Shown one piece after another: positions 1,665 to 39,625 of a stretch of 64,000 nt of DNA. The notes beneath the pieces are model-generated. The model saw only the letters and a list, made by a program, of their open reading frames with translations. It ran no database searches and had not been told where the DNA came from. Origin of the DNA: an uncultured Acidobacteriota bacterium (lineage in GTDB: Bacteria > Acidobacteriota > Thermoanaerobaculia > Thermoanaerobaculales > Sulfomarinibacteraceae); contig CAVSIS010000053.1 in assembly GCA_963727925.1 (NCBI GenBank), positions 32,319 through 96,318 of the forward strand. Direction: 5' to 3'. Both the position numbers and the translations under genes were made by a program. The first letter of the stretch is position 1; each line of letters begins with the position of its first letter.

Positions 1665-2191
1665 GGCGTCACCCCCAGCAGCTTGCGGAGCTTGCGCAGG
1701 CCGAGCCGGACGCGGCTCGCCGCCGTGAATGTTGGGACGCCGGTCACCGAGCCAATGGCGGCGAACGACAGCCCCTCGTAGTGCCGCAGATACACCGCCG
1801 CTCGCTGTGCCGGAGGAAGCTTCCCGAGCGCTGACGCGACGACGGCCGCCTCGGCCCGGCTCTCGGCATCGGCTGCGACCGGCTCGGCGACCGCGTCGTC
1901 GATCGCGACCAGCCGGCGGCTCCGGCGGGCGAGGTCGACCGCCGCGCGGTGCGTCATCGCCAGCAGGTACGAGCGCGGGTTGCGGACCTCGGCAAGCTTC
2001 GCACCGGTCCGCGCGAGTCGCACGAAGACCTCCTGGACGACATCCGCTGCGTCCTGCCGGGAGCCGGTTCGGAACAGCGCAAAGCCGAACAGGTCCGCAG
2101 CACTGTGGTCGTAGATTCCGCCGAGCGCCTCGATACTACCGTCGGCGAGCGAAGCGAAGTGCAAGAAGAGGGGGTCGTCATCGCCAGTCAC
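1661..2191 (-). CDS. ECF-family RNA polymerase sigma factor
   Basis: Region 2 DAADVVQEVFVRL and region 4 LGKLPPAQRAAVYLRHYEGLSFAAIG...SRVRLGLRKLR. GTG at 2191 with GGAGAAGG SD chosen as start. Confidence 0.88.
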   Translation of the reverse strand: MTGDDDPLFLHFASLADGSIEALGGIYDHSAADLFGFALFRTGSRQDAADVVQEVFVRLARTGAKLAEVRNPRSYLLAMTHRAAVDLARRSRRLVAIDDAVAEPVAADAESRAEAAVVASALGKLPPAQRAAVYLRHYEGLSFAAIGSVTGVPTFTAASRVRLGLRKLRKLLGVTP

Positions 2192-2433
2192 GGCATCAGC
2201 CTTCTCCGGAGGTGCGGCAAGTTCGTGAGGTACGGCGGCGGTCAGTATCGAGTCGCTCACGCCCCAATGACGAGGTTCGGGCCCCATCTTGTCACTTCAC
2301 GGGCGAAGGAAACGGGAGACCTCGTACGGCTGCGAGGCACACTCTGGACAGAGGCATCCCGGCCTGCCTCGATTCTCAGAACACCATCAAGGGCCCCTGC
2401 TCAGCGGGCGCTCAGCCTGGTGAGAATCGCGGG

Positions 2434-3402
2434 CTACCCGATAGCGTGCCGCAGGTGGCCCACGATTTCCTGCAGGGCTTCGGGTCCGACGACGTCGTGG
2501 GGCAGGAGCGGGAGCTCGAGCTGGGGCAAGTCGGGGAACGTGGCCACGATCTCCTGCATGTAGCGCTTCTCCTGCTCCTTGCGCGCGGCCAGGAACGGGT
2601 GGCCGCTGGAGTCGTCGGGGAGAATCCGGTTGACGACCAGCCCGCCTACCGGGACCTTGAATCGGCGCAGCATGGTGACCGCCTTCGCGGTCTCGAGGAT
2701 CGGTAGCCGCTCGGCGAGAAGCACGAAGATGAACGCGGTCTCTCCGGGATTCAAGAGGAGGATCCGCATCTGGTAGAACTTCCGGCGCCGCGCGGTGAGG
2801 ATCTTCTCGACCGGGTCGGACGACTCCTCCTCCGGCGCCCCGCCCACCGTCATCTGGCGCCACATCCCGGACAACTCGTTGACCCGCTTGCGTCGCTCGA
2901 GCAGGCCGTCGATCCACGCCTGCAGCAGCTCGGGTAGGGTGAGTAGGCGCAGGGTGTGACCCGTGGGTGCGGTGTCGAAGACCACCAGGTCGTACTGGTC
3001 GTGGACCGTCAGCACCAGGTCCGCCACGCGGTCGAAAAGCGCCGCCTCCTCGGCGCCGGGCGACACCCGGGCGATCTCCACCTGGCGCTCCATCTCGGCG
3101 CGCAGGTGCTCGGGAGCGACCCGCAGGAGATGGATGCGCACCCGGTCGATGTACTCTGCGGCGGCCTTCTCGGAGTCGATCTCCAGGGCCCAGAGGTGCT
3201 CGGTAATCCTCCGCTCGGTCGGGCCGAGCTCGGTCTCGAGGATGTCCCCGGTGGAGTGCGCGGGATCGGTGGACACGAGCAGGGTGCGCCGTCCCCCTTG
3301 GGAGGCGAGCAGGGCGAACGCGGTCGCGCAGGTGGTCTTGCCGACTCCGCCCTTGCCGCCGAAGAAAAGGATCCGGCGGTCGAGCCAGTGAGGTTCGTTC
3401 AT
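2434..3402 (-). CDS. ArsA/GET3-family ATPase (single domain)
   Basis: GGKGGVGKTT deviant Walker A, STDPAHS and DTAPTGHTLRLL signatures. Start MNEPHW at 3402. Confidence 0.92.
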   Translation of the reverse strand: MNEPHWLDRRILFFGGKGGVGKTTCATAFALLASQGGRRTLLVSTDPAHSTGDILETELGPTERRITEHLWALEIDSEKAAAEYIDRVRIHLLRVAPEHLRAEMERQVEIARVSPGAEEAALFDRVADLVLTVHDQYDLVVFDTAPTGHTLRLLTLPELLQAWIDGLLERRKRVNELSGMWRQMTVGGAPEEESSDPVEKILTARRRKFYQMRILLLNPGETAFIFVLLAERLPILETAKAVTMLRRFKVPVGGLVVNRILPDDSSGHPFLAARKEQEKRYMQEIVATFPDLPQLELPLLPHDVVGPEALQEIVGHLRHAIG

Positions 3403-3424
3403 CGGGTCCTCGAGGAAAAGGCGC

Positions 3425-3443
3425 GGGGCCCCGCCGGGGCCCC
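3425..3443 (-). promoter_or_regulatory. Candidate bacterial SECIS hairpin
   Basis: GGGGCCCC-GGC-GGGGCCCC begins 11 nt 3' of the in-frame UGA at 3455-3457. Confidence 0.6.
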
Positions 3444-3448
3444 GGTCG

Positions 3449-3727
3449 TCAGCATCATCTGAAGCCCCCGGGGGGCGACTTCTCCATTCCCTGACGCAGG
3501 TGCCACGCATGGAAGCGCTCGAGCATCGCGGGCAGCAGCTCCAGGGTGTAGTAGTTCACCGGGTTGGGAATACCCATCATGTCCGAGAAGCAGAGCAGGA
3601 GGAAGAGATCCTCCTCGTCGCGGTGGCGGCGCGCCGCCACCGACCGGTACGGCGAGAAGAAAAGCTCGTCGTAGAACTCGTTGAACCGTCGCCAACGCTC
3701 TCGCAGCCGTTGCCAGAAGGAGCTCAC
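3449..3727 (-). CDS. cory-CC-star-like small protein, predicted selenoprotein ending U-C-stop (92 aa)
   Basis: GTG overlaps the cstA stop. Motif EEDLFLLLCFSDMMGIPNPVNYYTLELLP...FHAWHLRQGMEKSP. 3' codons TTC AGA TGA TGC TGA. Confidence 0.8.
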
Positions 3728-5424
3728 TTCTCTGCCGTCTCTGGAAGCGAAACGGGGGGCCGGCGCAGTGCCAGGTACGCCTCGAGCGCCATCCACACTG
3801 CGGAGAACAGCACGATCACGCCCATGACGCCCATCAGGTAGTTGGGCTTGTCCCCGAACAGCCATCTGCCCAGACTGGTGAGCATGGCCCAGGTGGTCAT
3901 GACGAGCAGGAAGGCCATCGGGAGCATGACCGGTAGGATGTTGCGCCCGAGCCGCCTGAGGTAGACCGCGATCACGATCAGCGAGAGCGCCGCCAGGAGC
4001 TGGTTGGTGGTGCCGAAGAGCGGCCAGATGACAAGGCCGCCGGTGCCAACCCCGCCGCCGGGAGCGTGGGCGCCGAAGGCGAGCGCCAGGCAGGCCGCGA
4101 CGGCGATGGTGGTGGACACGGTGGGCTCACTGAGGAACTTGATGTCGTACTGCTCGCCCAGCTCGGCGACGATGTAGCGCTGGAGGCGGACGCCGGTGTC
4201 CATGGTGGTCGCGGCGAAGCTGACCACGATGACCGCTGCGAAGACCTGTCCCACCGGCACCGGCACGCCGAGATTCTCCGCCATCTGGGCGACGCCGTTG
4301 ACGAAGTTGCCCGCGGCCCCGCCGGAGGCGGCGCCCCAGCTGCTAAAGAGGGCAGACCAGTCGGCACGGGTGGCGGCGATACCCGCCGTCACCACCAGGA
4401 TCGAGCCCAACGCGAGCGCGCCCTCACCCACCGCCCCCATGTAGCCGACGAACTTCGCGTCGGTCTCCTTGTCGAGCTGTTTGGACGAGGTGCCGGAGGA
4501 GACCAGCCCGTGGAAGCCCGAGATGGCGCCGCAGGCGATGGTGATGAACAGGATCGGGAGGATCGGGGGGGCCCCGGCGGGAGAGGGGTTGTAGGCTGGC
4601 GCCATGATGGTGGGGTTGCCGACCGCCATGCCGATATAGAGGACGCCGAGGCCGACGATGAGCTCGTGGGAGTTGATGTAGTCCCGCGGCTGCAGGAGCA
4701 ACCACACCGGAAGGCGGGAGGCCGCCCAGGCGTAGAGGAACAGCACCACCACCCAGAATCCGGCGGGGCCGAGCCCGAGGAAGTGCTCGGGAATGACTAC
4801 CGGCATCTTGGCGCCGTACCAGACCATGACGTAGAGTGCGATGAGAGCGCCGATGGAGGGCCACAGCAGCTTGCCGCCCTTGCGGTAGATGATCCAGCCG
4901 ACCAGGATCGCGACCGGGATTTCGAACCAGATCGGCACGACGCTGCCGGGGAACTTCACGAACAGCCGCGCGATCACGATCGCGAACACCGCGTTCACCA
5001 TCAGCAGCAGCAGGAAGATCACGATCATGAACAGGGTGCGGGAGCGCCTGGACAGCACCTGCTCGGTGAGCGAGCCCATCGAGCGCGCCTTGAAGCGGGA
5101 CGAGATCCAGAGGGTGCCGAAGTCGTGGGCGCCGGCGAAGAAGATCGTGCCGAAGATAACCCAGAGGAGAGCCGGGAGCCAGCCCCAGTACACGGCGATG
5201 GCCGGCCCGACGATCGGCGCCGCACCGGCGACCGAGGTGAAGTGGTGACCCCACAGCACGTGCTTGTTGGTCGGCACGAAGTCGACCCCGTCCTGAAACT
5301 CATGGGCCGGGGTCACGAAGTTGGGGTCGAGCTTGTAGATCTTTTCAGCCAGGAACTTCGCGTAGAACCGGTACGCAATGAGGAAGGCACCAAGACCTAA
5401 GATCGCCAGATAGATCGCCTTCAT
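3724..5424 (-). CDS. cstA: Carbon starvation protein A family transporter
   Basis: TPAHEFQDGVDFVPT, GHHFTSVAGAAPIVGP, ITIACGAISGFH and WPLFGTTNQLLA motifs, many TM helices. ATG at 5424 with GGAGGAG SD. Confidence 0.95.
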   Translation of the reverse strand: MKAIYLAILGLGAFLIAYRFYAKFLAEKIYKLDPNFVTPAHEFQDGVDFVPTNKHVLWGHHFTSVAGAAPIVGPAIAVYWGWLPALLWVIFGTIFFAGAHDFGTLWISSRFKARSMGSLTEQVLSRRSRTLFMIVIFLLLLMVNAVFAIVIARLFVKFPGSVVPIWFEIPVAILVGWIIYRKGGKLLWPSIGALIALYVMVWYGAKMPVVIPEHFLGLGPAGFWVVVLFLYAWAASRLPVWLLLQPRDYINSHELIVGLGVLYIGMAVGNPTIMAPAYNPSPAGAPPILPILFITIACGAISGFHGLVSSGTSSKQLDKETDAKFVGYMGAVGEGALALGSILVVTAGIAATRADWSALFSSWGAASGGAAGNFVNGVAQMAENLGVPVPVGQVFAAVIVVSFAATTMDTGVRLQRYIVAELGEQYDIKFLSEPTVSTTIAVAACLALAFGAHAPGGGVGTGGLVIWPLFGTTNQLLAALSLIVIAVYLRRLGRNILPVMLPMAFLLVMTTWAMLTSLGRWLFGDKPNYLMGVMGVIVLFSAVWMALEAYLALRRPPVSLPETAEK

Positions 5425-5698
5425 CGCTCCTCCCCTCCATGCTTTAGCAAGCGACCGCCGCCGGATGTCAAACCGGATCGATCTCTCGCTGGTTGCGTGG
5501 GTTCGCCCTGAGTTGATTTTCCTTGCCGGAAGCCCTGATGTCAACTGGATGCGCCGATGGCTACGGGCGGGCCCGTGGGGCGCGTCGACGCTGGGTGTGC
5601 GCCGTCATCGCCGGGCACGGCGGACTGCCCCACGAGGGAGGATCTGCCGGGGGATGCGAGGTGGGAGAGGACGGTTGGAACGTCTCGGGGCGGGCAGG

Positions 5699-7518: not shown

Positions 7519-7881
7519 ATGCACGAGTTCTGCTGGGTGGAGATGGTGACCGATGATCGCAAGGCGGCGCAGTCCTTTTACGGCGACCTCTTCGGCTGGT
7601 CGTACGAGGAGGTCCCGATGCGGGACGGGCAGCACTACGCCATGTTCCGACCCGAGGCGGGTGGGCCGGGCGGCGGGATTATGAACAAGCCCGACTCGAA
7701 GCTGCCGACGACGTGGATGCCCTATGTGGCGGTCACTGACCTCGAGGCTGCGGTTGCCAGGGTTGCTACGCTCGGCGGGTCGGTCCAGGTCGTTCCGACC
7801 GCGATTCCGGGAATGGGGTCGTTTGCGGTGATCCAGGACCCGACCGGGGGTGTTCTCGGCCTGTGGCGAAACGGTGCCTGA
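7519..7881 (+). CDS. VOC/glyoxalase family protein
   Basis: FCWVEM..D..AAQSFYGDLFGW, WMPYVAV.DL, DPTG motifs. Confidence 0.9.
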   Translation: MHEFCWVEMVTDDRKAAQSFYGDLFGWSYEEVPMRDGQHYAMFRPEAGGPGGGIMNKPDSKLPTTWMPYVAVTDLEAAVARVATLGGSVQVVPTAIPGMGSFAVIQDPTGGVLGLWRNGA

Positions 7882-7992
7882 TCGCCTCCATCCGTGGTGG
7901 AACAGCGGCCGGCCGGGACGGGAGATCCTCCCGGCCGTGCCGTTCTTCCGGACCGAAGGACGGTCGGCGCAGACCACGCTATAAAATGCCGC

Positions 7993-8688
7993 ATGCGCCG
8001 CGCCGATCGCCTGTTCCGCCTGGTGGAGCTGCTGCGCCTGCGGCGCATGCTGACCGCCCGCCAGCTTGCCGAAGAGCTTGAGGTCTCCGAACGGACGGTC
8101 TACCGCGACGTCGCAGACCTGGCGCGTCAGGGCGTGCCGATACGGGGCGAAGCGGGCGTCGGCTACGCCCTCGACCCGGGCTACGAGCTGCCCCCCATGC
8201 AGTTCAACGTCGATGAGCTCGAGGCGCTGGTGCTCGGCGCGCGGATGGTCCAGGCCTGGTGCGGAGACGACCTCGCCGGGGCGGCGCAGGACGCCGTCGC
8301 TCGAATCGAGCACGCGCTGCCGAAACGGTTGCGGGACCGCATGGCGCGCACCGCGCTCTACGTTCCCGACGTCGGGTGGACGCTTCCCGGCGCCCGCCAG
8401 ATGGTGACGCTTCGAGAGGCGATTCGTGAGCAGCGCAAGGTCAAGATGCGCTACGTCGACCTTCAGGAGCAATTCAGCGAGCGGGTGGTGCGTCCCCTCG
8501 CGCTCTTCTTCTGGGGACCGAAGGCGACTCTGGGCGCGTTCTGCGAGCTGCGCGAGGACTTTCGCAGCTTCAGGCCCGACCGGATCCAGTCGCTCGAGCT
8601 TCTGCCGGAGATCTTCGCAGCGGAACCAGGTCGCACGCTCCAGGATTACCTGCGCAGGGTGTCCGAGGACGGCAGCCCGTTCGGCTGA
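7993..8688 (+). CDS. YafY-like HTH-WYL transcriptional regulator
   Basis: MRRADRLF, TARQLAEELEVSERTVYRD HTH, CELREDFRSFRPDRI WYL motif. TAAAAT at 7982-7987 lies 5 nt before the ATG (leaderless-like). Confidence 0.92.
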   Translation: MRRADRLFRLVELLRLRRMLTARQLAEELEVSERTVYRDVADLARQGVPIRGEAGVGYALDPGYELPPMQFNVDELEALVLGARMVQAWCGDDLAGAAQDAVARIEHALPKRLRDRMARTALYVPDVGWTLPGARQMVTLREAIREQRKVKMRYVDLQEQFSERVVRPLALFFWGPKATLGAFCELREDFRSFRPDRIQSLELLPEIFAAEPGRTLQDYLRRVSEDGSPFG

Positions 8689-18867: not shown

Positions 18868-18911
18868 CGCTCAGCGCGCAGCAGCATGCTGCGCGCTGAG
18901 CGTCAATTGCT
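18859..18911. repeat. Perfect 25-bp inverted repeat with 3-nt loop
   Basis: AGCAATTGACGCTCAGCGCGCAGCA-GCA-TGCTGCGCGCTGAGCGTCAATTGCT. Confidence 0.9.
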
Positions 18912-19212
18912 AGAAGAAGCCGAGCTCGAGTTGGGCGGCCTCCGACATCATGGACGGATCCCACGGCGGGTCCCAGACCACCTCGACCGTTGACGAGGCC
19001 ACGCCCTCGACTGCGGCGGTCTTCTCCTCGACCTCCGGCGGCAGGGACTCGGCGACCGGGCACATCGGCGAGGTCAGGGTCATCACGATGCGGGCGTTGC
19101 CGTCGCCGTCGACCTCGACCTCGTAGATCAGCCCGACCTCCCAGATGTTGATCGGGATCTCGGGGTCGTAGATCGTCTTGATGACGTCGATGATGCGGTC
19201 TTTGAGCTCCAT
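18910..19212 (-). CDS. sufT: SufT/PaaD-like (DUF59) Fe-S assembly protein
   Basis: YDPEIPINIWEVGLIY, MTLTSPMCP, VWDPPW. Confidence 0.9.
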   Translation of the reverse strand: MELKDRIIDVIKTIYDPEIPINIWEVGLIYEVEVDGDGNARIVMTLTSPMCPVAESLPPEVEEKTAAVEGVASSTVEVVWDPPWDPSMMSEAAQLELGFF

Positions 19213-19216
19213 GAGC

Positions 19217-19660
19217 CTACTCCGTGCTTGCCGCCTGCTCGCCCTCGACCGCAGCCTTGAGGGTGTGCCAGGCGAGGGTCGCGCATTTGACCCGCACCGG
19301 GTACTCGCGCACCCCCTCGAAGACCCTGAGCTTGCCGAGCTCGAGACCCTGCTCCTCGGCGACGCCGGTGAGCATGTGGTGGAAGCCTTCGAACAGCTGC
19401 ATGGCCTCTTCGATGGTCTTGCCCTTGACGGACTCGGTCATCAGCGACGACGAGGCGGTGCAGATGGCGCAGCCGTGGCCCTGGAACGAGACCTCCTGGA
19501 TGATCCCGTCCTCGATCCGCAGGTAGACACGGACGGTGTCGCCGCACAGCGGGTTGTGACCGTCGGCGGAGCGGTTCGGGCAGTCGAGGGCGTAGCAGTT
19601 CCGGGGCCGCCGGTTGTGGTCGAGGATGACCTCCTGATAGAGATCGCGCAGCTCTGACAT
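19217..19660 (-). CDS. sufU: SufU/IscU-type Fe-S scaffold/sulfur-transfer protein
   Basis: LYQEVILDH, NPLCGD, GCAIC, RVKCATL. Confidence 0.93.
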   Translation of the reverse strand: MSELRDLYQEVILDHNRRPRNCYALDCPNRSADGHNPLCGDTVRVYLRIEDGIIQEVSFQGHGCAICTASSSLMTESVKGKTIEEAMQLFEGFHHMLTGVAEEQGLELGKLRVFEGVREYPVRVKCATLAWHTLKAAVEGEQAASTE

Positions 19661-20913
19661 CAGGCGAAGACCTCCCGCACGCGGCGAAGGCCGCGTGCCA
19701 GCGCGGCGACCTCGTCGGACGTGTTGTACAGACCGAACGAGGCGCGCACGGTCGCGGAGATGTTGTAGCGCATCATCACCGGCTGGGCGCAGTGGTGACC
19801 GGCGCGGACCGCGATGCCCTCGGTGTCGAGGATGGTGCCGACGTCGTGGGGGTGGATGCCGTCCATCACGAACGACAGCGCACCGGAGCGGCGGCGGGCC
19901 TGGCCGATCAGGCGCACGCCGGGCACCTCGAGCACGGCTGCGGTGGCCTCCTCGAGCAGGCGGTGCTCGTGGGCCGCGATCGCCTCGAGGCCGACCGCGT
20001 CGACGTACTTCAGCGCGGCGGCGAGGCCGATCGCGCCCGCGATGTTGGGCGTTCCGGCCTCGAAGCGGTGGGGCGGCTCGGCGAAGGTCGTCTTCTCGAA
20101 GGTCACCGACAGGATCATGTCGCCGCCGCCCTGGTAGGGGATCATCTCGAGGAGGTGGCTGCGCTTCCCCCACAGGGCGCCGATCCCGGTCGGAGCGTAG
20201 ACCTTGTGGCCGGAGAAGGCGTAGAAGTCGCAGCCGAGCTCGAGCACGTCGACCCTCATGTGAGGCAGCGCCTGGGCGCCGTCGACCAGCACCGGCACGC
20301 CGTGGGCGTGAGCCATCCGCACGATTTCGGCGATCGGGTTGACGGTGCCGAGGGCGTTGGAGACGTGGACCACGGAGAGGATCTTCGTCCGCTCGCCGAG
20401 CAGCCGCTCGAGCTCGTCGAGGATCAGCTCGCCGCGGTCGTCAATCGGCGCCACCTTGAGCGCGGCGCCGGTGCGCTCGGCGAGGAGCTGCCACGGCACG
20501 ATGTTGGAGTGGTGCTCCATCGCGGTGATCAGGATCTCGTCACCGGGTGTCAGGCGGGGTCCGACGAAGGAGTGGGCGACCAGGTTGATCGACTCGGTGG
20601 TGCCGCGGGTGAAGACGATCTCGCGGCTGTCCTTGGCGCCGAGGTGGGCTTTCACCGCCGTACGGGCGTTCTCGTAGGCGACCGTCGCTCGCTGAGAGAG
20701 CGAGTGGACGCCGCGGTGCACGTTGGCGCAGTCGCGCTCGTAGAACGAGCTCACGGCGTCGATCACAACCCGCGGCTTCTGGGTCGTCGCGGCGTTGTCG
20801 AGGTAGACCAGCGGCTTGCCCCTGACCTCCTGGTGGAGGGCCGGGAAGTCGGCTCGCACCCGTTCGAGATCGAGCACGGCCTCGGCCGGGGTGGTGACCG
20901 GTTGCGTGGCCAT
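19660..20913 (-). CDS. sufS: Cysteine desulfurase SufS
   Basis: YLDNAATTQKP, EHHSNIVPW, FSGHK, RAGHHCA. Confidence 0.95.
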   Translation of the reverse strand: MATQPVTTPAEAVLDLERVRADFPALHQEVRGKPLVYLDNAATTQKPRVVIDAVSSFYERDCANVHRGVHSLSQRATVAYENARTAVKAHLGAKDSREIVFTRGTTESINLVAHSFVGPRLTPGDEILITAMEHHSNIVPWQLLAERTGAALKVAPIDDRGELILDELERLLGERTKILSVVHVSNALGTVNPIAEIVRMAHAHGVPVLVDGAQALPHMRVDVLELGCDFYAFSGHKVYAPTGIGALWGKRSHLLEMIPYQGGGDMILSVTFEKTTFAEPPHRFEAGTPNIAGAIGLAAALKYVDAVGLEAIAAHEHRLLEEATAAVLEVPGVRLIGQARRRSGALSFVMDGIHPHDVGTILDTEGIAVRAGHHCAQPVMMRYNISATVRASFGLYNTSDEVAALARGLRRVREVFA

Positions 20914-22247
20914 CAGAACGCCTCGCGGACGAGCTCGCCCTGGGGCAGCCTCTCGATCAGGAACTCCTCGAGCACGCGGCGGACCGGTTCGACCTTGACT
21001 CTCCCGACGATGTCGCTGGCAAAGGCCCAGGTGAGCAGGCTCTCGGCGGCGGCGCGGTCGAGCCCGCGCGAGCGAAGGTAGAAGACCGCGTCCTCGTCGA
21101 GACGGCCGATGGTGGAGCCGTGGGTGCACTTGACGTCGTCGGCGAAGATCTCGAGCTGCGGGTTCGAGTTGGCGAGTGCGGTCGGCGACAGGAGGAGGTT
21201 GCGGTTGGTCTGCTTGGCGTCGGTCTTCTGCGCGCCCGGGTCGACCACGATGCGGCCGGTGAACACGCCGTGGGCGCCGCCGTCGAGGATCCCCTTGTAG
21301 AGCTCGTGACTGGTGCAGTGGGGGACCGCGTGGCGGACCCGCATCGAGGTGTCGACGTGCTGGGTGCCGTCGACCACATAGAGTCCGTTGAGGACGCAGT
21401 CGGCGCCCTCGCCGAGCAGCTCGGCGCCGACGTCGGTCCGGGCGAGCCCGGCGCCGAGGGTCACGGCATGGGATGAGAACGAGCTCGCCCGTCCCTGGCG
21501 CACGGCCTGGACGGCGACGTGGGAGGCTTGGCGCGACTCCTCCTGTATCCGGTAGTGGTCGACGATCGCGCCGTCGGCGAGGATGATCTCGGTCACTGGT
21601 GCGGTCAGCGCCCGGCCGGCGGTGCCGAGGTAGGACTCGACCACCGTCGCCTGGCTGGACTCGCCCGCCACCACGAGCACGCGTGGAAAGGCAGCGACTA
21701 GGTGGTCGTTCGGCGAGGTCACGAAGACGAGGTGAATCGGGGCCTCGACCACCGCGCCTCGCGGGAGCACGACGGCAGCGCCGTCGACGAAACCGGCGGC
21801 GTTGAGCGCGCCGATCGGCGAGGTCTCCGGGGCGGCGAGTGCCCCGAGGTGGCTGCGGACCAGCTCGGGCCGCTCCGCCGCGAGGCTCGCGAGGCTGGTC
21901 ACGATCACCCCTGAGGGCAGCCCGTTGGACGAGCCGAGCTCGGAGACCAGCCTCCCGTTGACGAACACCAGCCGATGGGCCGGCTCGAAGCTCCGCGCGG
22001 CGACCGCGGCGCGCGTCGCACCGTCCACCATCGGACCGGCCGTGGTCCACTCGGTGGTCACGACCGGACGCAGGTTGGTGAAGCGCCAGTCCTCGTGGCG
22101 CGGCGTCGGGAGCCCGTTGGCGGCGTAGGCCTCGAGGCCGCGACGGCGCAGCGCGCCGAGCACCATCGGCTCCCCCGAGCGGGTGCCGGCGAGCGACGCG
22201 ACGAGACGGTCGAGTCCGGCCTGACGGGCGACGGCGACGTCCTTCAC
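20913..22247 (-). CDS. sufD: Fe-S cluster assembly protein SufD
   Basis: EDWRFT, PQLEIFADDVKCTHG, FYLRSRG. Confidence 0.93.
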   Translation of the reverse strand: MKDVAVARQAGLDRLVASLAGTRSGEPMVLGALRRRGLEAYAANGLPTPRHEDWRFTNLRPVVTTEWTTAGPMVDGATRAAVAARSFEPAHRLVFVNGRLVSELGSSNGLPSGVIVTSLASLAAERPELVRSHLGALAAPETSPIGALNAAGFVDGAAVVLPRGAVVEAPIHLVFVTSPNDHLVAAFPRVLVVAGESSQATVVESYLGTAGRALTAPVTEIILADGAIVDHYRIQEESRQASHVAVQAVRQGRASSFSSHAVTLGAGLARTDVGAELLGEGADCVLNGLYVVDGTQHVDTSMRVRHAVPHCTSHELYKGILDGGAHGVFTGRIVVDPGAQKTDAKQTNRNLLLSPTALANSNPQLEIFADDVKCTHGSTIGRLDEDAVFYLRSRGLDRAAAESLLTWAFASDIVGRVKVEPVRRVLEEFLIERLPQGELVREAF

Positions 22248-22257
22248 GGCCGCCCCC

Positions 22258-24485
<2,228 letters not shown>

Positions 24486-24537
24486 GCTCTCTCCTCGTTC
24501 CATTCGTTCCTTTTCGGCGGGTCGCACGGGTCGGACC

Positions 24538-25008
24538 TCAGCCTTCGGCGCCACCAGCCACCGGCAGGGTGGCCAGGTGCGGGGATACCGCCGTCGGGCG
24601 GTCGCCCCGCAGCAGGTCGGCGACCGTGATCTGGGACAGAAACTGACTCACAACTGCGGTCAGCCCACGCCACACCGGACGCAGGCCGCACCCGCTCGAG
24701 CGCACGCACGGCAGGCCCTCGGGGCCGTATCGTTCGCAGAAGCCGCGGTCGTAGAGCGGCGCGTCGAAGGCAGCGACGATGCCGGCGAGGGTCAGCTCGT
24801 CGGGTGCGACGGCCAGGCAATAGCCGCCGTTGCGGCCCCGCTCGGCGTCGACGACACCCGCGCGCCGTAGCTCGGCGATGACCTTGGCCACTGTGGGCTC
24901 GGGCAGACGCTCGGACTTGGCGATCTCGCGTACGGTGAGCTGTCGGCCGCTCGTGGCCAGCCGCATCACCAGGCGAACCCCGTACTCCTCGGCTTTGGTG
25001 ACCCGCAC
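24538..25008 (-). CDS. Rrf2-family regulator of the suf operon (three Cys, probable Fe-S sensor)
   Basis: RGRNGGY wing, C-x9-C-x5-C, first gene of the suf operon. Confidence 0.88.
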
Positions 25009-25035
25009 GTCGCGCCTCCGTGGAGTGGAACGACA

Positions 25036-25060
25036 AAACCTGAAACAGAATTCCAGATTT
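25036..25060. promoter_or_regulatory. Probable Rrf2 operator (10-5-10 imperfect palindrome)
   Basis: AAACCTGAAA-CAGAA-TTCCAGATTT, AT-rich, just upstream of the Rrf2 gene. Confidence 0.5.
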
Positions 25061-25117
25061 CTGTGGCGCGGCGAGGGCAATCACACTTGACCCTTGAAGT
25101 ATCTACAGAGATTGCGC

Positions 25118-36271: not shown

Positions 36272-39200
36272 CTACATGCTCCTGCGATACCGCCCGCCGA
36301 CCTCGTAGAGTGCGTTCGAGATCTGCCCGAGCGAGGCGGAGCACACCGTGGCGAGCAGCTCCTGGAACAGGTTGCCGCCGGAGCGGGCAGTGTCCTGTAG
36401 GCGCGCCAGCGCTTCGGCCGACAGGTCGGCATGGCGCTGCCGGAAGTCGTGCAGGTGCGCGAGACGGGCGTCCTTCTCCTCCTTGGTCGCGCGGGTGAGC
36501 GGGGTGTCGTCGGCGGTCTCGGCGCCCTCGCGGAGGAAGGTGTTGACCCCGACGATCGGGTACTCACCGGTGTGCTTGAGCCGCTCGTAGTGCAGCGACT
36601 CCTCCTGGATCTTGCCGCGCTGGTACATCGTCTCCATGGCGCCGAGCACGTCGCCGCGCTCGGACAGGCGCTCGAACTCGTCGAGCACCGCCTCCTCGAC
36701 CCGGTCGGTGAGCCACTCCACGATGTGCGAGCCCTGGAAGGGGTTCTCGTTCTTGAGCAGGCCGAACTCGAGGGCGTTGATGAGCTGGATCGCGATCGCG
36801 CGCCGCACCGACTCCTCGGTCGGGGTTGTGATCGCCTCGTCGTAGGCGTTGGTGTGGAGGCTGTTGCAGTTGTCGGCCATCGCCAGCAGCCCCTGCAGCG
36901 TGGTCCGGATGTCGTTGAAGTCGATCTCCATCGCGTGCAGCGATCGGCCCGAGGTCTGGATGTGGTACTTGAGCTTCTGCGAACGCTCGTTGCCCTGGTA
37001 CCGGTTGCGGATCGCGATCGCCCAGATCCGCCGCGCGACCCGGCCGATCACGGTGTACTCGGGGTCCATGCCGTTGGAGAAGAAGAAGCTCAGGTTGTGG
37101 GCGAAGTCGTCGATGTGCATCCCGCGCGCGAGGTAGGTCTCGACGTAGGTGAAGCCGTTGGCGAGGGTGAAGGCGAGCTGGGAGATCGGGTTCGCGCCGG
37201 CCTCGGCGATGTGGTAGCCCGAGATCGACACCGAGTAGAAGTTGCGCACCTTCCAGTCGGTGAAGAGCTGCTGGATGTCGCCCATCATCCGGAGCGCGAA
37301 CTCGGTCGAGAAGATGCAGGTGTTCTGGGCCTGGTCCTCCTTGAGGATGTCGGCCTGAACGGTGCCGCGCACGACGTGCATGGTGCGCTTGAGCACTTCG
37401 CTCCACTCGCCGTCGGCGAGCAGGGGAGCGATGGCGTCCCAGTCCCTGCCGTCCACCACCGGCTGGAAGGCGGCCTCGGGCGGGGCGTCGAGCCGGCCCG
37501 ACTCGATCAGCCGCTTGCGGGCCTGCTGGCGGGCGGCAGCGTTGAAGAACATCGCCAGGATCATCGGCGCCGGGCCGTTGATGGTCATCGACACCGAGGT
37601 CGCCGGAGCGCACAGGTCGAAGCCGGCGTAGAGCCGTTCCATGTCCTCGACGGTGCAGATCGAGACCCCCGACTCGCCGACCTTGCCGTAGATGTCAGGC
37701 CGGGTGTGGGGATCCTCCCCGTACAGCGTGACCGAGTCGAAGGCGGTCGACAGGCGCACCGCGGGCTGGCCCTCGGCGAGGTAGTGGAAGCGCCGGTTGG
37801 TCCGTTCCGGGCCGCCCTCGCCGGCGAACATCCGGGTCGGCAGCTCCTGGGTGCGCTTGAGCGGGAACACGCCGGCGGTGTAGGGAAAGGCGCCGGGAAC
37901 GTTTTCGAGGAACAGGTAGCGGAGGATCCCGGGCCAGGTGATGAAACGCGGGAGCTGCACCTTCGGCACCTTGGTTCCGGACAGCGAGGTCGAGGTCAGG
38001 GGGACGCGGATCTCCTTGCCGCGGACGGTGTAGCTGAACTCGTCGCGGGCGAAGTCGGCGCGGATTTTCGGCCAGGCGGCGAGTAGTTCGCGGGAGTCAT
38101 AGTCGAGTCCGTGGGCGCGGCGTCGGATCTCAGCGTCGAGGTCGGCGAGGTGGGGCTCGGGGGTGGCCTCGGCGGCCGTGATCTCCTCGAACAGTTTCCA
38201 CAGGTCGGCCTGGCCGCCCTCGCCCTCGCGGGCCGACAGGATGGCTCGGGCCCCGACCAGCTGGTAGAGCCGGTCGGCGACCGCGATCTGCTCGTCGGCC
38301 CATGCCTTGTAGGAGCGCACGGACTTGGAGATCTCGCGCAGGTAGCCGGAGCGCTCGCCGGGGATCACGGGGTGGCGCTGGGGCGGGCCGATGGGCTTCG
38401 CCCTGGTCCCCTCGAGAGACCAATATCCGTCGTGGTCCGCGGCGAGGCGGCGCACGATCGCCTGGTAGAGGGCGTTGACGCCGTGGTCGTGGAACTGGTG
38501 GGCGCAGGTCGGGAAGACCGGGAGCTCCTCGTCCGCCGGGCCTTCGAACAGGACGTGGCAGCGGCGGTACTGCTTGCGCACGTCGCGTAGCGCGTCGAGC
38601 GCGCCCGGGCGGTCGAACTTGTTGATCGCCACGAAATCGGCGTAATCGAGCATGTCGATCTTCTCGAGCTGCATCGCGGCGCCGTACTCGGGCGTCATCA
38701 CGTACAGCGAGAGGTCGGCGATGTCGACGATCTCGGAGTCGGCCTGGCCGATGCCGGACGACTCGACCAGAATGAGGTCGAAGCCGGCGCCCTGGCAGAT
38801 GGCGATCGCCTCCTGGATGTGGCCCGAGAGCGCCCGGTGGGCCTGGCGAGTGGCGAGGGAGCGCATGAAGACGCGGTCGGAGCCGATCGCGTTGAACCGG
38901 ATCCGGTCGCCGAGCAGGGCGCCGCCAGTCTTGCGCTTGGTGGGGTCGATCGAGAGGATTGCAATCGTCAGCTCCGGAAAGTCGGCGAGGAAGCGCAAAA
39001 CGAGCTCGTCGGTGAGCGAGGACTTTCCGGCGCCGCCGGTTCCGGTCGATCCGAGCACGGGGGCGGGAGTCGCGCGCTTGGGGATCGCCACCGTCTGGCC
39101 GGCTTCCGCACGCGAGATCGCGCGCGCCACGTCGAGCCATCGCTCAGCGCCGGCGCCGAGCTCGTCGCCTCCAGGCAGCGCGGCGGGGTCGAAATCCGCG

Positions 39201-39625
39201 GCCTCGATCATGGCGTCGATCATGCCGTCGAGACCGAGCCTGCGGCCGTCCTCGGGCGAGAAGATCTTGGTCACACCATAGGCTTCGAGCTCCGCGATCT
39301 CGGACGGCACGATCACGCCGCCGCCACCGCCGAAAACCTTCACGTGGTCGGCGCCGCGCTCGCGCAGCCGATCGACCATGTAGGTGAAGAACTCCATGTG
39401 CCCGCCCTGGTAGGACGACACGGCGATGCCCTGGGCGTCCTCCTGGATCGCGGCGTCGACGATCTCGGCCACCGACCGGTTGTGGCCGAGGTGGATGACC
39501 TCCGCGCCGTGGGCCTGGAGGATGCGGCGCATGATGTTGATCGCGGCGTCGTGTCCGTCGAACAGGCTCGCGGCGGTGACGAAGCGGACCTTGTGCTTCG
39601 GGACGTAGGCGGGCTTCTGATGCAT
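36272..39625 (-). CDS. icmF: Fused isobutyryl-CoA mutase / MeaB-type GTPase chaperone
   Basis: B12-binding [45 protein letters not shown]; 1117 aa. Confidence 0.95.

Follow-up and report, generated by a model that had tools for sequence, protein, structure and literature searches.

A cstA-cstX-ATPase gene module from an uncultured Acidobacteriota bacterium in which the small protein CstX is predicted to end in selenocysteine-cysteine

The cstA-cstX-ATPase module described here is encoded on the minus strand of a 64,000 nt stretch of contig CAVSIS010000053.1 (the window), which derives from an uncultured Acidobacteriota bacterium whose genome assembly (GCA_963727925.1, or G000) is 79% complete. 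The module comprises three genes in the order cstA, a small gene of 92 codons (cstX) and an ATPase gene. CstA (3724..5424) is a 566 aa membrane carrier of the CstA family (PF02554, 462.6 bits) with approximately 31% identity to E. coli CstA. CstX (3449..3727) is a 92 aa protein that matches the cory-CC-star family (NF041419; DUF7990) over its full length with 119.1 bits against a cut-off of 80, and its DNA scores 111.8 bits when an in-frame TGA is read through. The ATPase (2434..3402) is a 322 aa single-domain member of the TRC40/Get3/ArsA family with a single cysteine (TIGR00345, 268 bits against a cut-off of 135). The GTG start of cstX and the stop of cstA overlap as GTGA and a spacer of 46 nt separates cstX from the ATG of the ATPase gene, an arrangement given in the preliminary description of the locus and borne out by the coordinates. 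Upstream of cstA lies a sigma-70-like promoter (TTGACA-17-GAAAAT, 5516..5544, minus strand) that matches at 10/12 positions, one such site being found against 0.4 expected in shuffled sequence, and a comparable -35/-10 pair precedes cstA in three close relatives (L007, L008 and L061), the first two of which are the Acidobacteriota metagenome-assembled genomes nearest to the locus. The same region contains a direct repeat with near-identical copies at 5463-5478 and 5535-5549, each including TTGACA on the minus strand; it could represent tandem promoters or an operator and is not obvious in the relatives.

The reading frame of cstX ends in GGFR-TGA-TGC-TGA, and the codon pattern indicates that in this Acidobacteriota lineage CstX very probably terminates in Sec-Cys-COOH (Sec, selenocysteine), preceded here by an arginine. 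The first TGA (3455..3457, minus strand) is the predicted Sec codon and aligns to the first cysteine of the family's Cys-Cys end; it is followed by a TGC cysteine codon (3452-3454) and the TGA stop (3449-3451), both on the same strand. Among 80 database homologues, 52 end in Cys-Cys and 28 are exactly two residues short, while none ends in a single cysteine; 46 of 47 further cluster members are also short. Both forms even occur within one cluster at 90% identity (P0101 with P0011 and P0102). A TGA-TGY-TGA end is found in all six loci retrieved by protein or hidden Markov model searches, the window included (four with TGC, two with TGT), and the codon after the TGA stays a cysteine codon, with synonymous change, across proteins that are 63-90% identical.

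The distribution of the TGA form is narrow. In a survey of 301 genomes of the class five score above the family cut-off and all five have the TGA, as do five of five in an overlapping set of 119 genomes of the order, whereas among the 24 that score above the cut-off in 401 genomes of the phylum it is confined to the two from the class of the source organism. A metagenome scan with a pattern that required TGA-TGY returned six loci, from which L065 was dropped as a member of another family and L063 and L066 as duplicates of L020; the three that remain count for the hairpin described below only, because the search pattern itself required TGA-TGY. In a quick tree of 84 columns with weak support all 29 short forms fall into one subclade together with 13 Cys forms (SH-aLRT, the Shimodaira-Hasegawa-like approximate likelihood ratio test, 90). 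At a broader scale, 150 representatives at 50% identity comprise 85 that end in Cys-Cys, one that is two residues short and 64 that end otherwise.

Downstream of the predicted Sec codon lies a hairpin resembling a selenocysteine insertion sequence (SECIS) (3424..3444, minus strand), with a 9 bp stem and a GGC loop whose first G lies at a distance of 22 nt from the first base of the UGA. Each of the nine TGA loci contains a GGC or GGT loop, located at +21 to +23, on a stem of 8-11 bp, whereas no hairpin with at least 7 bp in the stem and a loop that opens with G occurs in any of 27 Cys-Cys loci, a control that covers 27 of the 28 because L071 was missed by the regular expression for the tail. 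In the genome at large 343 of 74,935 TGA triplets pass a similar hairpin filter. Across the loci 95% of the stem cells pair and two-sided changes are seen at five of nine base pairs. A search against Rfam gave no match for the hairpin. The alternative that it acts as a transcription terminator was rejected, as it is unlisted in a terminator scan and the U run is missing in relatives. Going by the spacing usual for SECIS elements in bacteria, the second UGA lies too near the hairpin for recoding and is therefore expected to act as the stop. With high probability, then, SelB would read the hairpin, Sec would enter at the first UGA and the second UGA would terminate translation.

The machinery for Sec incorporation is partly represented in the source genome, where SelB and SelD score above cut-off. 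tRNA-Sec(TCA), SelB and SelA are all present in five genomes with the TGA form (G070, G026, G182, G209 and G301), of which G301 (identical to G674) belongs to the same genus as the source and has selA, selB and selC. Within the class selA is found in 290 of 301 genomes, a tally that takes in three unpublished ones, and all five selA-negative genomes tested carry Cys-Cys. The source genome also contains three other probable selenoprotein genes with an in-frame TGA (C6:11291, minus; C38:79327, plus; C56:54862, minus). Their motifs are TxxU, UxxC and CxxU, which we take to denote peroxiredoxin-like, TlpA-like and HdrA-like proteins, and two of the three have clear hairpins. A further in-frame TGA candidate at C38:97281 (minus) is unexplained, and FdhA has no match in this genome.

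Several observations weigh against a Sec-Cys end. Neither selA nor tRNA-Sec was found in the 79% complete source assembly, where the Rfam matches to tRNA-Sec proved to be tRNA-Ser and where nothing corresponds to the region that holds selC in the same-genus genome. Of the Cys-Cys genomes from this phylum, all 22 have selA as well; co-occurrence with the Sec machinery therefore discriminates little, and the Sec form goes with the lineage and does not simply follow from the machinery being there. The two-sided changes in the stem can be traced to about two lineages (L019/L062 and L020), and the stability of the hairpin does not exceed that of shuffles (z -0.6). The 64 representatives without a Cys-Cys end include many fragments and frameshifts, and the cysteine tail is not universal, because many distant CstX-like proteins have no terminal cysteine at all. 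The first TGA could be a plain stop, leaving a tailless CstX of 90 aa, the form that databases annotate, followed by a relic cysteine codon and an unrelated GC-rich hairpin. The absent selA and tRNA-Sec and the ordinary hairpin stability are on its side, but it leaves the retention of the cysteine codon, the strict partition of the hairpin between TGA and Cys-Cys loci and the mixture of short and Cys-Cys forms within one cluster without an explanation, and is considered very improbable. The Sec reading, which had been put forward from the window alone, is well supported by the aligned TGA, the hairpin and the machinery in relatives.

The ATPase is closest among solved structures to algal ArsA1 (226 bits) and to the archaeal TRC40-like proteins 3zq6 (212) and 3ug6 (187), with the arsenite ArsA structures ranking behind (9nbl, 184; 1f48, 166). 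The helical insert that forms the client groove in Get3 and TRC40 appears from the alignment to be shared with 3zq6 and 3ug6, with no large gap relative to the former. The cysteines of arsenite ArsA are unmatched and there is no conserved cysteine at the arsenic or zinc sites. The ATPases of these operons have 0-3 cysteines each, and the CxxC motif of Get3 was not found in any of 37 operon-ATPase locus rows, duplicates among them. Nor is the protein built like an arsenical pump, as it lacks tandem domains and scores 151 bits on the corresponding profile (TIGR04291) against a cut-off of 650.

An arsenite or antimonite efflux pump in which CstA takes the place of ArsB and CstX that of ArsD might be suspected from the ArsA_ATPase family match and the vicinal thiol tail. 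Some CstX proteins (P0085, P0090 and P0092) are in addition fused at their N-terminus to a thioredoxin-like domain of approximately 130 aa with a Cys motif, for which a resemblance to ArsD is weakly indicated (score 0.85; 14% of members). Such a pump is nevertheless highly unlikely, because the ATPase is without the arsenite and zinc cysteines. The genes that would accompany it are also missing: ArsB, Acr3, ArsC and ArsR have no Pfam match among the 45 scanned open reading frames (ORFs) of the window, a list filtered by codon bias and length from which a small gene may escape, and the genome, at 79% completeness, yielded no acr3 either. The accessible part of the paper that first described operons of this kind likewise reports no ars genes in 26 of them (Castillo and Saier 2010; PMC2963123).

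CstX is predicted to be helical with amphipathic ends and without a transmembrane segment. The predicted model has helices at residues 2-51, 56-59 and 64-78 (predicted local distance difference test, pLDDT, 75.5; predicted template modelling score, pTM, 0.48), and the best 19-residue hydropathy is 1.03, a value of 1.6 being reached by only one of 81 homologues. Foldseek returned no match for the model and VIA-align only generic helices (best Z 5.2); by sequence, neither CstX nor CstA has a relative of solved structure. Complex prediction for an ATPase dimer with the 90 aa form of CstX scored 0.29 relative to a mark of 0.32 and is evidence neither way. The match to a client-groove insert and the closeness to ArsA1 and archaeal TRC40-like structures could suggest that the ATPase is a Get3/TRC40-like chaperone. 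CstX would then be its cofactor in the insertion or folding of a transporter, be it CstA or a different one, and the tail would serve as a redox switch of chaperone activity. A role general to many clients would also suit the changing transporter beside the pair (CstA, P1B ATPase or MerC, see below). This is rather unlikely given the lack of the Get3 CxxC, the low hydropathy of CstX, which does not make it a tail-anchored client, and the absence of an insertase receptor gene from this operon.

The gene neighbourhood of cstX, a survey of which had been proposed as a check, is conserved in part. The survey covers 40 distinct loci, of which nine are of the Sec form, 28 of the Cys-Cys form (22 from the phylum and six from elsewhere) and three divergent; they are clustered by kinship and are not independent. 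The ATPase gene comes after cstX in 39 of them and cstA lies directly before cstX in 24, including all nine Sec loci, which is more than expected by chance and shows a closer bond of cstX to the ATPase gene than to cstA. In 16 loci cstX occurs with the ATPase gene and without an adjacent cstA. A Cys-Cys operon is also known from the cultured species Pseudidiomarina salinarum (L010). The proposal that the three genes form one functional module therefore holds as regards conservation, and had already been made in the literature (PMC2963123), but the module is not strictly three-part. In the genomes G424 and G671 the cstX-ATPase pair lies directly behind an ArsR/SmtB regulator and a heavy-metal P1B ATPase with no adjacent cstA (L101, G424:C2:43000-53000, minus; L124, G671:C138), and in G424 it lies upstream of TolC-like, adaptor and probable RND (resistance-nodulation-division) efflux genes. 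A third genome has a degenerate cstX behind the same two genes and lacks the ATPase partner (L102, G500:C14). In L014 the pair is preceded by merC. This gene context lends circumstantial support to a link between the tail and metals.

CstX also has distant paralogues in a twin operon found in about 25 genomes of the class (L098-L100, L021-L045), which contains, in this order, cstA, an antisense membrane ORF of approximately 190 aa, cstX', cstX'' and two ATPase genes. These paralogues are without a terminal cysteine, cstX' encodes a His-rich tail, which is a further hint of a metal link, and in L098-L100 cstX and the ATPase gene are duplicated together, from which a 2:2 complex of the two proteins would be expected. 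In L077-L088, mostly of family f67, a divergent cstX whose product ends in LPCC and an ATPase gene occur without cstA, often between genes for an M61 peptidase and a DinB/YfiT-like protein. In four of four such genomes tested the cstA has greater similarity to that of E. coli, and no ybdD was seen within the fetched loci. Directly upstream of one Sec-type operon (L104, G209, 2073-3077, operon strand) there are transposase-like ORFs.

The metal link and the separability of the pair from CstA also face contrary evidence. The metal-transporter contexts are few, amounting to one lineage (three genomes) and one locus, and 12 of the loci without cstA have no metal gene among the matches made, their neighbours being mostly the M61 peptidase and DinB. 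In all nine cstA-less genomes tested cstA is present elsewhere. A search of longer proteins gave 12 matches, and the apparent CstA-CstX fusions among them were set aside because their linkers are off-frame and they are mostly frameshift artefacts; P0084 is an in-frame exception and a singleton, and the five that were looked up are singletons.

Operons of the type cstA-cstX-(cstY)-arsA were first described from genomes by Castillo and Saier (2010; PMC2963123), who reported 26 cstA-arsA operons, 24 of them with a cstX of about 90 aa. As far as the accessible text of that paper goes, the genes, their order, the size of CstX, the single-domain ATPase of approximately 320 aa and the lack of ars genes all agree with the window, and from its size and position their CstX appears to be the NF041419 family. 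It differs in three respects within that text: CstX is called a protein with one transmembrane segment, it is said to be 'never present without CstA', and no Sec form is mentioned. The authors proposed that CstX couples CstA to ATP hydrolysis. Uptake through CstA would in that case be primary active transport powered by the ATPase, with CstX as a structural coupler, and the tail would be incidental or would only form or resist a disulfide. Trees that match across the 26 operons (PMC2963123), the position of cstA before cstX in most loci and in every Sec locus, the overlap of stop and start codons here and the existence of cysteine-free paralogues are all in line with it. It fits less well with E. 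coli CstA, which is annotated as a pyruvate/proton symporter (NF011590) and has no adjoining ATPase gene, and with the 16 loci where the pair stands apart from cstA; moreover, the tail is likely to be chemically active because the Sec codon and the hairpin are kept. On balance the model is judged unlikely.

YbdD/YjiX proteins (DUF466, PF04328) and KCU-star (NF033934) resemble CstX in that they are small, follow the gene of a CstA and end in a vicinal cysteine pair with a Sec variant, and YbdD/YjiX shares a short similar 'G-x-P' motif with CstX. Kinship between the two, which the preliminary description had set side by side, is not borne out: PF04328 matches none of 66 CstX members at E<=10, and profile-profile comparison with hhalign gives a probability of 3% (2-6% across comparisons), one of 100 column shuffles having scored higher, so that at most a very remote relationship is conceivable. 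The terminal selenol/thiol pair that was surmised by the same account is predicted, but its order is U-C and thus the reverse of KCU-star, where Sec comes last; in CstX it is second-last, and the partner is a Get3/ArsA ATPase. SaoC (NF040734) likewise ends in two cysteines and has a Sec variant, which was called, according to the accessible part of its preprint, from evidence of the same type, namely a UGA in line with Cys and a 7 bp stem with a GGU loop at comparable spacing; it differs in being a lipoprotein of an ABC (ATP-binding cassette) system with C-U order (bioRxiv 10.1101/2022.07.06.499078). The cory-CC-star family itself (NF041419; PF25952, DUF7990) ends in C-C-stop where the window has U-C-stop, two ends that correspond only where the first TGA is translated as Sec, and its model name lacks the '(seleno)' tag.

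A cstA-cstX-arsA cluster is thus known from genomes since 2010 (PMC2963123), and its small protein is cory-CC-star, not YbdD. What is new is the CstX that in all likelihood ends in Sec-Cys-COOH, together with the contexts in which cstX and the ATPase gene are uncoupled from cstA. Table 1 of a 2026 review, which lists 119 selenoprotein families and includes KCU-star and SaoC (both CU), contains neither NF041419 nor a terminal UC (PMC13188914). No mention of a Sec-type CstX was found in the literature consulted, including a term search of the deep-Sep supplements (PMC12013277) and the available part of the BSepDB paper (PMC13326102), while BSepDB Table S2, Haft and Tolstoy 2025, bioRxiv supplements and the NCBIfam comment were outside the search. 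The searches found no experimental study of the module, one paper that joins CstX and CstA (PMC2963123) and none that combines Get3, ArsA, CstA and bacteria.

It is proposed, with a probability of about 0.5, that the three genes form a module with a predicted Sec-Cys CstX in which CstX and the ATPase respond together to metals or redox state and serve the CstA carrier as an accessory unit. Activation, insertion or gating of the transporter by the ATPase and metal binding by the tail, as envisaged in the preliminary description, are conjectural. Studied relatives of CstA carry pyruvate or peptides. How such a unit might work can be sketched only tentatively and by loose analogy with the action of ArsD on ArsA, from which the same ATPase fold and P-loop and DTAPTGH motifs are known, as they are from Get3/TRC40; the present ATPase differs from these proteins in that it has neither the arsenic-binding cysteines nor the Get3 CxxC and is without a tandem domain. 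The amphipathic, non-transmembrane CstX may serve as a helical adaptor that binds the ATPase dimer. Ligands for soft metals or redox chemistry, which the cysteine-poor ATPase does not have itself, would be provided in trans by the vicinal selenol and thiol of the CstX tail. Binding of a soft metal or a change in redox state at the tail would then control the ATP cycle, which would switch or assemble the transporter, usually CstA, rather than drive transport. A bolder extension, and a rather doubtful one, would be that CstX and the ATPase are a portable unit for sensing or handling soft metals, akin to an ArsD/ArsA pair, that docks onto CstA, P1B ATPases or MerC. The Sec-Cys-COOH form would then be a new bacterial selenoprotein family whose reactive site is the tail, and the CstA subfamily seen here could be a metal-regulated carrier, or a carrier of metal complexes, rather than one simply of pyruvate or peptides.

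The remainder of the window contains several other recognisable gene groups. Immediately downstream of the ATPase gene (33-2287, minus) are an extracytoplasmic function (ECF) sigma factor gene, a small ORF of anti-sigma type and the gene of a large protein with a membrane anchor. A Glyoxalase/VOC gene followed by an HTH-WYL regulator lies at 7519-8688 (plus), and suf genes for Fe-S assembly with an Rrf2 regulator at 18910-25080 (minus). At 36272-39625 (minus) a single fused protein combines a B12-binding domain, a MeaB GTPase and a mutase, presumably an IcmF-like architecture.

CstX of this lineage is likely to represent a type of selenoprotein, ending in Sec-Cys, whose last two residues are lost when genes are called automatically. 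If this is true, two different small proteins occur beside CstA, YbdD/KCU-star and CstX, each with a variant in which Sec takes the place of one cysteine of the vicinal pair at the C-terminus, and this would suggest that genuine chemistry takes place on the cytoplasmic face of CstA transporters. The Sec-type CstX may thereby offer a handle on a widespread module that was proposed in 2010 and on the role of the single-domain bacterial Get3/ArsA ATPases.

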